DNA from: Octopus sinensis
Lineage: Eukaryota
DNA: 64,000 nucleotides
Reading direction: 5' to 3'
Assembly: GCF_006345805.1 (NCBI RefSeq)
Contig: NC_043000.1
Span: 60,698,001-60,762,000 of the forward strand
Part shown: positions 24,201 to 30,200 of the stretch, one piece after another
How the letters are laid out: each line of letters opens with the position of its first letter
How positions within the stretch are numbered: the first letter of the stretch is position 1
The notes under the pieces: generated by a model
Database searches by the model: none
What the model was told of the DNA's origin: nothing
Seen by the model: the letters and a program-made list of their open reading frames with translations, nothing else
Made by a program: the position numbers and the translations under genes

Positions 24201-27200
24201 GTAGTTAGGAATCTAAATCGTAGGAGACAGACACACAACCTTACTTTTATATTCAGTGCAAGTGTGTTGGGATGTTGTCTACCTTGACTTTGCTAAGGCT
24301 TTCAACTCTGTGCCACACAAAAGGCTTATGGTGAAACTCTCTGCAATGGGTGTGGGGGATGACCTTTTTAACTGGTTGAAATCCTTCATCCTCAGCCGAA
24401 AGGAGGTAGTCACAGTTCTAGGACAGCACTCTACACCATATGAGATGTCATCGGGTGTACCACAGGGATCTGTCCTTGGCCCCCTCTTGTTTGTGGCATA
24501 CATTAACAACATAGATGCCAATTTAAAGAATGCCACAGTATTGAAATATGCAGACGACATCAAGCTGTACCTTGAAATCAAGAGGACAGATCCTGATGTC
24601 TACAACTCTTTCCTGCAATCAGACCTAGACACAATGCAGCAATGGATCACAGACTGGCAACTGAAACTGGCTGTGGACAAGTGTACCACCATGTATTTTG
24701 GGAGAAAAAACCCTGCGTTCACATACTCCCTCCACAACACTGATATCAAGAAATCCTCTTGCGAGCGTGACCTAGGCATCACTGTCAGCAGTGATCTGCG
24801 TTGGTCAAAGCATATCTCTAAGATTGTCAGGAAGGCCGAGGGTGTCTTGGCATCACTCAGCAGGTCTTTTGTTAGCCGCTCTCCAGCCATCTATTTAAAA
24901 CTGTATACAGCTATGGTACGACCACACTTGGAATTCGCATCATCAGTTTGGAACCCCTATCTTGCACAGAACATTGACCTCCTGGAATCTGTCCAGAGAC
25001 GTGCAACCAAACGCATACCCTCCATCAGACACCTACCATATTCTGAGCGCCTTGTTTCCTGGGCATGGATTCACTGAAGCTCCGGCGTTTGGCGACGGAC
25101 TTGGTAAACACCCACAAAGTTATCAACCACCTCACCAACAACAACACTGAACACCTTTTTGATCTCCATGTGTCTAACACACGTGGACATGCCTACAAAG
25201 TCAGAAAACAATACAGCTCCCATGACTTTCGGAAACATTTTTTCACGCTCAGAGTTGCTGAAGCATGGAATAAACTGCCTGCGTCAGTTGTTGACTGCCA
25301 TGACACTGCATCTTTTAAGGCCCTCATGCTTTCCGAAATCCGCCGAAACTTCACCTGATTATATATACACTTTAGATGAGTTGTAGTGCACCTGAGCACT
25401 GTACACAATTATTATTATAGAAAGCAACGGAGCAGCAAAGCTGATGCCAAATGTATGCAAGGGAGACAACTTTGGTTTAGACAATGTGTAGTGAGTTTAT
25501 GGTGATAATTACATGGGGTAAAGATACACCAAAGAAGTAGGTAGTCAATTTAGAATTGCAAATGGAGATGAGAAGATGCAAAAAAAAAAAAAAAAAGTAT
25601 AAAGAGTCATTCCAACTATGCTAATTTGGAAAGGTGTTAAAGCAGAGCTGATGCTGTTGAAATGTAATGACAATTTTGTAAATATGTTTGACCAACAAAT
25701 CACTTCAACTTTGTATTGCTGAAATTGAACAATTTAAAAACATATTCCTAATTTGCCAAGTCAAAATCAAAACAAGGAATGTCAGGTACCTTGTTCTAAG
25801 TACAAGTTTATTTCATATATATTTATTATTCAACTATGGTTGTGGTCGAATATATTCTTAAGGCCACGATTTCGTCAATCGCAGCAGATTCACTCACAAG
25901 GTATTGGTCGGCCCATTGTTATAGTACAAGACACTTGCCTAAGGTGTTTCACAGTGGGACTGAACCGGAAACTACATGGTATCAAAGTAGACTTCTCTCA
26001 TGAAATGTTATAATAAACACAAGCCAGCAGACCTTCAGAAGTTTTGCCTTTGGAAAGATTTAAAAACCAAACACTGCATGCTCATGAATGACTTGTCAGT
26101 GAGATAGTGCTTAGAACAGCAAGATATAGTTCCCTGTTGTACCTATTCTATAGTTAGATCAGAAGTGAATGAATGAGAAAGAGCCTGTTGTATAAGAAGT
26201 TAGCCCAAACCACCTAGACATTTTTTAAAATTAAAATTTAAAAAAATTATTGTTGCATATTATGTTGTATAAATTGGTTTAAAAAATCAACAAAATTTGC
26301 CTTGCATCACACTCTACTGTCTTCTATAAAAAAAAAAGGGAGAATAAACGAAAAAAAGCTGGAGAACCTTTAATGATAATTTCACTCCAGTGGGGTTGAC
26401 CTGGGGCTAAAATACAAAACAGAGCAACGTTACGTTAAGTAGCACTACTGCTACTGCTACTACTACTACTGCTGCTGCTGCTGCTGTCACCATTAATGTA
26501 TAGGATAAAGATGATAGACACAACAAATGGTATAATGACATAAAGCTAATATGCAAATAGAAAAGAACTAATGTTTACTTCTAATTTTGTAATTAGCTTG
26601 TGTAATGGAAAAGTGAAAGTACGTTTTGCTTACCATAATATATCCAATCAGTCACAGGGGCAACAGCAATGCCACATTTAAAAATATCAGTTCCTCGGCC
26701 AAGAATTGAACTGCTCACAAAACCACCATATGACTGCAAGTAGATAATAATAATAATAATAATAATAATAATAATAATAATAATAATAATAATTCTTTCT
26801 ATTATAGGCACAAGGTCTGAAATTTTGGGGGATGGGGAAACGAGCACATGGACTCCAGTACTTGACTGGTACTTATTTTATCAGCCCTAAAAATACAAAA
26901 GGCAAAGTTGATCTTGGTGGAATTAGAATACAGAACATGAAGACAAATGAAATGACGCTAAGCATTTTGCCATGTGTGCTAATGATTCTGCCAGTTTGCC
27001 ACTTTATAATAATAATAATAATAATAATAATAATAATAATAGTAATAATAATAATCCTTTCTACTATAGACACAAAGCCTGAAACTTTGGGGGAGTTGGG
27101 TAGTCAATAACGTTGACCACAGTACACAGCTTGTACTTATTTCATTGACCCCCTGAAAGGATGAAAAATAAAGCTGACCTCGGCAGAATTACAATGCAGA

Positions 27201-30200
27201 ATGTAAAGATGGGTGTGTGCACGCACACACACAGTGTACATGCTTCAACCATAGCTAACACCAATCCACGGGAAGTAACTTCTTTCCTTAAAAAAAAATG
27301 ATATAATTTCTTTTCACCATATTTTGTCCCATTTCTTTTTACTCCGAGTCAGCCAATATTGCTTGACAGTGAGTGTGTGTGTGTATACCTAACTATCTAA
27401 CTGTATTATATTATATAATTAAATGCTTCAAGGAAGTTATATAATGTCATACTGTCATCCAGCTCTGGATGTATATTTACTTATAGCAGAAACAGTCATA
27501 AGCTAATGAAGGTGATTAACACTTGTTCTTTTGAAATTCATTCATTGATTTACACACACACAAGTATGTATGTACGTATGTATGTATGTATGTATGTGTG
27601 TATGAATGTATTATGTATGTATGTATGTGTGTATGTATTATGTATGTATGTATGTATTATGTATGTATGTATGTATGTATGTATGTGTGTGTGTGTTTAC
27701 ATATCATCATCATCATTTAGTGCCCATTTTCCATGTTGGCATGGGTTAGATGGTTTGATTGGAACTGGTAAGCCAGAGAGCTGTACCAGGCTCCAGTCGG
27801 ATTTCGACTTGGTCTCTACAGCTGATGTCCTTCCTCATGCCAACCATTCCAAGAGTGAAGTGGGTGCCTTTTTACATGTCACCATTATGAGTACCTTTTG
27901 CATGCCACTGGCACAGGTCCCTTTTACATGTCATTGGCATGGGTACTTTTTATGTGTTACCAGCACACACACAATATATATGTAGAGAGATACACACACA
28001 CACACACACACACACACACACACACACACACACACACACACACACACACACACATACATACATACATACATACATACATACATACATACATACATACATA
28101 CATACATAAAATGGATGCATTAATAACAAGTTGAATGTATAAGACCAGAGAGTACTGCAATCAAAAATTAGCTACATCATTTGTTATATTTTACAATAAG
28201 TTTTCAATGCAAAATGGTATATATTATTTGATAGTTTGTACAATTAAGAAAGGAAACAAAAAATATAAAGTATGGTCACATAGAAATATTGAGGCATTAA
28301 CCCTTTCATTACTGTATTTATTTTGAGATGCTCTGTGTTTCTTTCAATTACTTTAAATATAACAAAGAATTTAGCAAAATAACTTAATTATCATTCAGCT
28401 AGTGTTAGGAACATAAATTGTGACTAAGGTTTGGTGGAAGATTTTAATTCAAAACTTATGAAGACAAGACATTTGTACTACAGAGTCAGAGGCGGTTTCA
28501 GCTAGATTGGTAACGAAAGGGTTAAATTAGGCAGACAATGCAGAAAGTGATGTTATAATAATAATAATAAAAACATTGTGTACAGTGCTCAGGTGCACTA
28601 CAACTCATCTAAAGTCTATGTATAATCAGGTGTAGTTTTGGCGGATTTCGGAAAGCATGAGGGCCTTAAAGGATGCAGTGTCATGGCAGTCAACAACTGA
28701 CGCAGGCAGTTTGTTCCATGCTTCAGCAACTCTGAGCGTGAAAAAATGTTTCCGAAAGTCATGGGAGCTGTGTTGTTTTCTGACTTTGTAGGCATGTTCA
28801 CGTGTGTTAGACACATGGAGATCAAAAAGGTGTTCAGTGTTGTTGATGGTGAGGTGGTTGATAACTTTGTGGGTGTTTACCAAGTCTATCGCCAGACACT
28901 GGAGCTTCAGTGAATCCATGCCCAGGGAAACAAGGCGCTCAGAGTATGGTAGGTATCTGATGGAGGGTATGCGTTTGGTTGCACGTCTCTGAACAGATTC
29001 CAGGAGGTCACTGTTTTGAGCAAGATAGGGGTTCCAAACTGATGATGCGAATTCCAAGTGTGGTCGTACCATAGCTGTATACAGTTTTAAATAGATGGTT
29101 GGAGAGCGGCTAACAAAAGTCTTGCTGAGTGATGCCAAGACACCCTCAGCCTTCTTGACAATTTTAGAGATATGCTTTGTCCAACGCAAATGACAGTAAT
29201 GCCTAGGTCACGCTCGCAAGAGGATTTCTTGATATCAGTGTTGTGGAGGGAGTATGTGGACGCAGGGTTTTTTCTCCCAAAATACATGGTGGTACACTTG
29301 TCCACAGCTAGTTTAAGTTGCCAGTCTGTGATCCATTGCTGCATTGTGTCCAGGTCTGATTGCAGGAAAGAGCTGTAGACAACAGGATCTGTCCTCTTGA
29401 TTTCAAGGTACAGCTTGATGTCATCTGCATATTTCAATACTGTAGCATTCTTTAAATTGGCATCTATGTCATTAATGTATGCCACAAACAAGACGGGACC
29501 AAGGACAGATCCCTGTGGTACACCCGATGACATCTCATATGGTGTAGAACTGTGACTACCTCCTTTCGGCTGAGAACGAAGGATTTCTACCAGATAAAAA
29601 GATCATCCCTCACACCCATTGCAGAGAGTTTCACCATAAGCCTTTTGTGTGGCACAGAGTTGAAAGCCTTAGCAAAGTCGAGGTAGACAACATCTACCCA
29701 TGAGCCACTGTCAGTGATCTGAGTAATGTCCTCAAGGAACTCAACAAGCTGATCACTGCAGCTGGAGTTAGGGACAAATCCATATTGTGAGGGTCGGATG
29801 AGACTGTGAGAGCTCCAGAAGTTCCAAAGTGTTTCTCTGACACATGATTCCATCAGTTTTGTAATACAGCTAGTGAGACTGACTGGGCGATAGTTGATAG
29901 GTGATGTGCGGTCGCCCTTTTTGAACAGAGGAATGACACTGGCAGTTTTCCACTGCTCCGGAGTAGCACCATGTTATTAATTTGTTTTGTTTTACAGAAT
30001 ATTTATAATACGAGGAGGAAGAAAAGTCTAAGTGAGAAAGTAGCAAAAGAAACAAGTAGGAGATCTTGAAGAGAAACTTACTCTAGACATAAAAAACAAC
30101 TTACCCATCCCCAAACGGCAATTTTACTGGATTCCACATAATGCAGTTTCTCAAACTCCCTGTGAAATAAATATATGTGTCAATAAAATCAGAACTGTTT

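Follow-up and report, generated by a model that had tools for sequence, protein, structure and literature searches.

An inverted pair of LINE copies around the catalytic-serine exon of Octopus sinensis DPP4, probably a recent and unselected accident

Dipeptidyl peptidase 4 (DPP4) of Octopus sinensis carries its catalytic serine on a short exon, here called exon L, which lies between two inverted copies of one long interspersed nuclear element (LINE). Does this arrangement control the exon, or is the exon surrounded by it and nothing more? The window analyzed (64,000 nt, NC_043000.1, positions 60,698,001 to 60,762,000 of the forward strand; coordinates below are counted within it) carries the 3′ two-thirds of the DPP4 gene on the minus strand, and the exons are identical to XP_029635770.1 of Octopus sinensis (tblastn 100%). 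A preliminary description of the window proposed that the pair could act as a switch derived from transposable elements (TEs) or give rise to a single-exon circular RNA (circRNA). The pair is probably an unselected recent accident instead, made of independent insertions whose stem is likely edited, around an exon that is mostly included and whose skipped product would be frameshifted waste. Such an accident is likely because copy A, the younger of the two, appears to be missing from two related animals and because no exon skipping is seen in the limited RNA data.

The protein encoded in the window matches PF00930 (DPPIV_N) and PF00326 (Peptidase_S9), and the Peptidase_S9 match is also found at exon L itself. 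The catalytic triad and the nucleophile motif of DPP4 are described in PMC4515598 (papers are cited by PubMed Central number). The GWSYGG, DDNVH, and DE.H motifs of the octopus protein align with those of mammalian DPP4, as in the S9B family, and exon L opens with the serine of GW/SYGG (the slash marks the exon boundary), which is aligned to the mammalian nucleophile. Human DPP4 presumably has an intron at the same GW/SYG position, although two literature checks did not confirm it. Residues 659-676, 677-709, and 710-729 are encoded by exons K, L, and M, respectively; because they are consecutive, exon L is the sole coding exon of DPP4 in the loop between the LINE copies, as had been described.

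Joining exon K to exon M leads into a shifted frame (23 protein letters) that stops 13 nt into exon N, in agreement with the frameshift and the stop given in the preliminary description. The premature stop is 60 nt before the N/O junction, and the rule for nonsense-mediated decay (NMD) is 50-55 nt from the stop to a downstream junction; the skipped RNA would thus be expected to enter this pathway. Of note, the acceptor of exon L is preceded mostly by an (ATT)n repeat tail (26744-26790), which takes the place of the ordinary pyrimidine tract. The tandem repeat found there (Table 1) is one that we take to be similar to a short interspersed nuclear element.

Self-BLAST of the window aligns 24271-25418 with 29694-28564 in inverted orientation, at 93.7% identity (gaps counted) over 1,151 columns. 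Ungapped, copies A and B differ by 54 substitutions in 1,128 columns (95.2% identity), and two small deletions of 13 and 7 nt are both in copy B, which confirms the earlier account of a single LINE segment present in inverted orientation, about 95% identical and with two small deletions. The extents given there for the elements required correction, while the pair itself stands: copy B extends ~280 nt beyond the matched segment, to 29972, through sequence that has no partner in copy A, and the loop between the arms is ~3.14 kb rather than ~3.2 kb. Both arms encode the reverse transcriptase (RT) and the C-terminal part of the second open reading frame (ORF2) of the LINE (Pfam RVT_1). The stem lies 1.2 and 1.8 kb from the two splice sites of exon L. 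In a motif scan, neither arm has a match resembling an acceptor or a poly(A) signal, and each has a single weak hexamer resembling a donor; Rfam has no match in 20000-31500. Copy B is flanked by a candidate 7-bp target-site duplication (29971-29977 / 28550-28556).

The element is a non-LTR (long terminal repeat) retrotransposon. As in CR1-clade LINEs, the longer copies (L066 and L067) combine an APE-type endonuclease (Exo_endo_phos_2) with an RT (RVT_1), and the family is composed of dispersed copies with 5′ truncation and a short tandem tail, here (ATT)n. A 22-mer at the 3′ end has 2,940 exact matches in the genome, and a 22-mer located 1.1 kb upstream has 486. Among the best 120 relatives of the RT, the named proteins are mostly bird and turtle RTs, none of them labelled CR1; CR1 is the main LINE of birds and turtles. 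The sequence fits the CR1 clade, an assignment based on named hits rather than on a tree with labelled reference clades. The octopus element differs from known CR1-clade LINEs in that the closest matches of its RT (L067:5123-7612; 55-63% identity) are unnamed proteins, encoded on short ENA and JGI contigs and standing well above the named vertebrate matches. In O. vulgaris, 13 recently active CR1 families are reported (PMC13282606). Two other loci of this family, L073 and L074 (G000:C2:9047000-9056999 and C2:8921500-8931499), lie ~125 kb apart and are arranged alike: in both, two direct LINE copies are separated by 5.7 kb. They represent either a recent segmental duplication or a duplication in the assembly.

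The origin of the pair can be read from an alignment of A, B, and 58 other copies, picked as best matches to A or to B. Copy A differs by 0.26% from its nearest copies and belongs to the youngest clade, while copy B differs by 2.6% from its nearest copies and belongs to the oldest. Because the two fall into different clades, because B is the most distant of the 59 comparisons made with A (4.79%), and because they have a single rare variant in common over ~1,130 columns, A and B are, on this alignment, independent insertions that differ about tenfold in age, without homogenisation. The terminal branches (0.0018 for A, 0.0214 for B) correspond to rough ages of ~0.5 and ~6 million years (My) at 0.0036 substitutions per site per My, the rate quoted in PMC13282606. 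Membership in one family explains the similarity of A and B, which is thus not due to chance. Also considered was an origin of the pair by local duplication, or a gene conversion between A and B; the different clades and the one shared rare variant rule both out.

The youth of copy A is matched by its distribution, for which the sequencing evidence consists of assembled contigs from 6 of 24 runs, a set without X1, the possible source of the window. DNA runs X3 and X5 come from two studies and carry the same organism label (organism C), which differs from that of the possible source of the window. A contig of X5 spans the 5′ junction of copy B. Contigs of X3 and X5 align from 25419 onward, the base that directly follows the tail of A, and carry 44 and 43 unmatched letters, respectively, ahead of it; at an empty site, up to 47 would be expected (17 unique nt and up to 30 nt of the high-copy repeat next to A). 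Because these leading letters would match the tail of A if A were present, copy A appears to be absent from both animals, as judged from the counts of unmatched letters. Contigs of X2 give no cover at the junction of A. For the comparison with animals lacking one copy, suggested in the preliminary description, the B junction is present in X5 and A is apparently absent from X3 and X5. The apparent absence refers to organism C.

The same contigs bear on whether copy A is an assembly error and the pair absent from animals. No target-site duplication was found flanking A, and among the contigs listed no run examined is shown to bridge an A junction, as such an error would predict. Copy A nevertheless has the 5′ truncation and the (ATT)n tail of a real insertion as well as variants of its own, its nearest copies being 3 substitutions away, and its absence from a differently labelled organism fits its young age. 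An assembly error is thus very improbable.

In a pre-mRNA carrying both copies, the predicted stem contains 19 A:C mismatches and 594 A:U pairs. Because adenosine-to-inosine (A-to-I) editing in octopus is found mostly in introns and 3′ untranslated regions (PMC9699675) and repeat-directed editing is widespread in coleoids (PMC9068888), the stem is likely edited, and the 1.1-kb duplex as modelled is a likely ADAR substrate. The editing foreseen in the preliminary description is supported in this sense, by the predicted stem and by the coleoid literature, as an expectation only. Copies 99.7% alike are indistinguishable in the assembled contigs.

A 635-nt contig (depth 6.6) from X10, a run that is RNA-like although no run is on record as RNA, indicates inclusion of exon L. 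It aligns at 26634-26734 with 217 and 317 unaligned letters on either side and no break, and it fits a spliced, unbranched mRNA through exon L. In addition, all five O. sinensis protein isoforms (5/5) include the exon. X10, the one RNA-like run with a contig on exon L (1/1), contains no skip or back-splice joint, at shallow depth and with the library type not on record. No RNA-like run of three (0/3) has contigs on exons J or K, though the X10 contig should reach them; this is unexplained and is treated as neutral evidence. The K-M junction and the back-splice of exon L that the preliminary description had named as tests are both missing from this single shallow contig, which is too thin to exclude them. 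The supplement of PMC8382921 contains 0 matches to DPP4 terms.

Reverse-complementary intronic matches favor back-splicing (PMC6376117), and both introns flanking exon L exceed 3 kb, raising the possibility that the main effect of the pair is an abundant single-exon circRNA. However, exon L is 100 nt long, shorter than the medians of 169-253 nt for single-exon circRNAs (PMC6376117), and in total RNA from octopus no more than 296 circRNAs remained after filtering (PMC9699675, supplementary PDF). Furthermore, a circle of exon L has stops in all three frames, and X10 lacks a back joint, within the depth and library limits given above. There is accordingly only a very slight chance that the circRNA envisaged earlier is the principal product.

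It is less remarkable than it looks that the loop encloses the catalytic-serine exon and no other. Of the 15,832 placements allowed in DPP4 for a loop of the same size, 51% enclose exactly one exon, and 9 of the 14 internal exons cause a frameshift if skipped, each such shift losing the catalytic histidine, which is encoded by the last exon. For the latter two reasons, exon L is no special target. Copies of the LINE are also clustered: among the first 100 places listed of 2,940, 4 pairs lie within 5 kb, vs 0.47 expected. Elsewhere in the genome, a tail-to-tail pair of the same family brackets three dynein heavy-chain exons (L076:1916-7856; G000:C1:91639000-91648999), and it is the only other tail-to-tail pair within 5 kb among the first 100 copies listed of 2,940.

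These results speak to a selected, regulated switch, in which ADAR activity or tissue state would open or close the stem and thereby tune the amount of active DPP4. The A:C mismatches and A:U pairs of the stem offer many editing targets, and coleoids edit repeats widely (PMC9068888). Against this, copy A is very young and appears absent in X3 and X5, the arms are independent insertions without homogenisation, exon L is not a special target, and the skipped form is without RNA support. The switch of the preliminary description is therefore not upheld, and selection for it is highly improbable.

A further set of observations weighs against an accident around a mostly included exon. The window has 66 inverted matches, among which the A/B pair is the strongest; inverted matches of any kind straddle only 3 of the 14 internal exons, so the idea that nearly every exon is bracketed by inverted repeats was rejected. 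None of the long copies listed (100 of 486) has an inverted long neighbor within 20 kb. For 486-1,000 long copies, 0.12-0.5 tail-to-tail and 0.23-1 inverted long pairs are expected per genome, figures that cover one LINE family among dozens and that rest on 100 of 2,940 and 100 of 486 listed places and Poisson arithmetic rather than on a direct genome-wide count. When all 2,940 copies are used, 4 tail-to-tail pairs would be expected within 5 kb, a figure discarded as too high for long pairs, for which the long-copy count gives 0.1-0.5. The arms of the dynein pair overlap by 195 bp only, at 90% identity. Beyond its rarity, the predicted A/B duplex is large (1,097 pairs, −2,104 kcal/mol, longest helix 111 bp), copy B begins 133 nt past the donor of exon K, and editing of the stem is likely rather than observed at the locus. 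The X10 contig is shallow, its flank letters are not displayed, and the animal may or may not carry copy A. NMD products are not annotated as proteins, so the isoform set is biased to inclusion. A 297-bp engineered inverted sequence is enough for skipping in TBXT (PMC10901737), and Alu deletion cut skipping in 7 of 8 selected reporters (PMC13019944). The A/B arrangement is uncommon, yet within reach of independent insertion.

Many of these points would be equally at home in an unselected leak of the TBXT type, in which the stem loops out exon L in at least 10% of transcripts, leading to NMD and a lower dose of DPP4 in carriers. As a splicing allele, such a leak would be neutral or mildly deleterious, and it would be no switch. 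It is favored by the very stable stem around a single 100-nt exon, the nearness of copy B to the K donor, an exon L acceptor immediately preceded by an (ATT)n tail instead of the usual pyrimidine tract, the distance of the premature stop from the next junction, and the TBXT and reporter precedents. However, 4.1 kb of intron remains between the stem and the M acceptor, and in human exons it is shorter downstream introns that go with skipping (PMC13019027). To judge from the coordinates, the K-L intron could also be removed first, because it is complete 1.2 kb before copy A is transcribed. Finally, the X10 contig is unbranched across exon L. A leak of this magnitude is a real possibility, albeit an unlikely one.

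The preferred reading, an unselected recent accident, can be put as a sequence of hypothetical steps. The older copy B would have inserted first and been tolerated. Copy A would have landed recently in the next intron, inverted with respect to B, and the long stem would be an accidental result. In the pre-mRNA, the arms would pair into the 1.1-kb stem, which is likely ADAR-edited. Most transcripts likely retain exon L, and a product that skips it would be out of frame and NMD-bound.

The coordinates of the exons, LINE copies, and neighboring repeats are collected in Table 1. The high-copy repeat next to copy A presumably has Helitron-like ends.

Table 1. Features of the DPP4 locus around exon L, in window coordinates
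Feature	Position	Strand	Basis
High-copy repeat ending 17 nt before copy A	23740..24252		1,748 candidates; matches end at 24252
LINE copy A, 5′-truncated, antisense to gene, youngest subfamily, (ATT)n tail	24270..25418	+	Alignment, tree
LINE copy B, 5′-truncated, sense to gene, older subfamily, two deletions, (ATT)n tail	28557..29972	-	Alignment, tree
Two tandem copies of a short dispersed repeat; (ATT)n run ends ~11 nt before exon L acceptor	26744..27190		Self-BLAST, sequence
DPP4 exon J, 195 nt	30961..31155	-	tblastn 100% to XP_029635770.1, splice sites read
DPP4 exon K, 55 nt, ends ...W-G-W, donor gtaagt	30105..30159	-	Sequence
DPP4 exon L, 100 nt, catalytic Ser first (SYGG)	26634..26733	-	Peptidase_S9, protein match, X10 contig
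DPP4 exon M, 59 nt	20063..20121	-	Protein match, splice sites
DPP4 exon N, 73 nt; stop of the K-M join at its nt 11-13	17808..17880	-	Sequence

Several other features of the gene were recorded. At 30961, the last base of exon J, the genome encodes lysine at the J/K junction (AA/G), while 4 of 5 O. sinensis RefSeq isoforms have arginine, as do the proteins of O. bimaculoides, Argonauta, and cuttlefish; DNA run X5 has no variant at this base. The difference may reflect A-to-I recoding of the last base of the exon, restoring the ancestral arginine, or a polymorphism. In X5, ~350 bp of the intron after exon L (25976-26326) are swapped for 5 letters, a sign of fast intron turnover. Further inverted pairs (44361-45159/57807-58605 and 42477-42860/49521-49976) have 72-90% identity and straddle two to four DPP4 exons. 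A 421-bp inverted repeat of 90% identity (59035-59455 / 59680-60090) lies inside one intron, ~29 nt after the donor, and belongs to a dispersed AT-rich family with 430 candidates. Both arms of this repeat occur close together at several other loci; it is therefore probably a foldback-type element with long terminal repeats.

The octopus DPP4 pair joins a known class of exon-straddling inverted TE pairs. In the literature searched, which was mostly open-access, no paper on this locus was found; the searches covered cephalopod DPP4 or editing, with no cephalopod paper among those listed, and inverted LINEs, with only human elements among the papers listed. The value of the locus is that of a natural experiment, with a long clean stem, a datable younger arm, and relatives that apparently carry the older arm only. 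RNA matched to genotype would tell whether long LINE stems cause skipping in an animal whose ADAR activity is very high or whether editing and co-transcriptional splicing neutralize them.

The closest precedent is exon 6 of TBXT, around which a young AluY pairs with an older AluSx1, with skipping shown by deletion and knock-in (PMC10901737). Both loci have an older shared element upstream and a younger, inverted, lineage-restricted element downstream, with one exon in the loop and the arms distant from the splice sites. They differ in that the octopus arms are formed by a 1.1-kb LINE, nearly four times longer than the 300-nt Alus of TBXT, and in that skipping is out of frame in octopus and in frame in TBXT. 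Moreover, TBXT skipping is demonstrated, while octopus skipping, which would have to depend on both copies, is unobserved; the octopus pair could act in the TBXT manner. A TBXT-like event caught early, in which a LINE less than about half a million years old acts with an older one to cause unproductive splicing tuned by ADAR, is improbable. If true, the amount of skipping would be set by ADAR unwinding, linking cephalopod repeat editing to enzyme dose, and relatives lacking copy A would serve as a natural control.

As in human Alu pairs, a reverse-complementary TE pair straddles the exon within 5 kb; the difference lies in the host, which is not a primate, and in the element, a CR1-type LINE. 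In human, LINE1 accounts for 9% of the reverse-complementary matches straddling exons (PMC13019944). Inverted or direct Alu pairs flank nearly as many constitutive as skippable exons, and the energy of the stem hardly tells the two groups apart (PMC13019027). Because the human data are a statistical enrichment, with many pairs at constitutive exons, the geometry of an inverted pair does not predict skipping at one locus. With respect to repeat editing in coleoids, the A/B pair differs in that its editing is not observed here; in form, it is a long intronic repeat hairpin, and in octopus and squid such hairpins are the most frequent type of substrate for editing.

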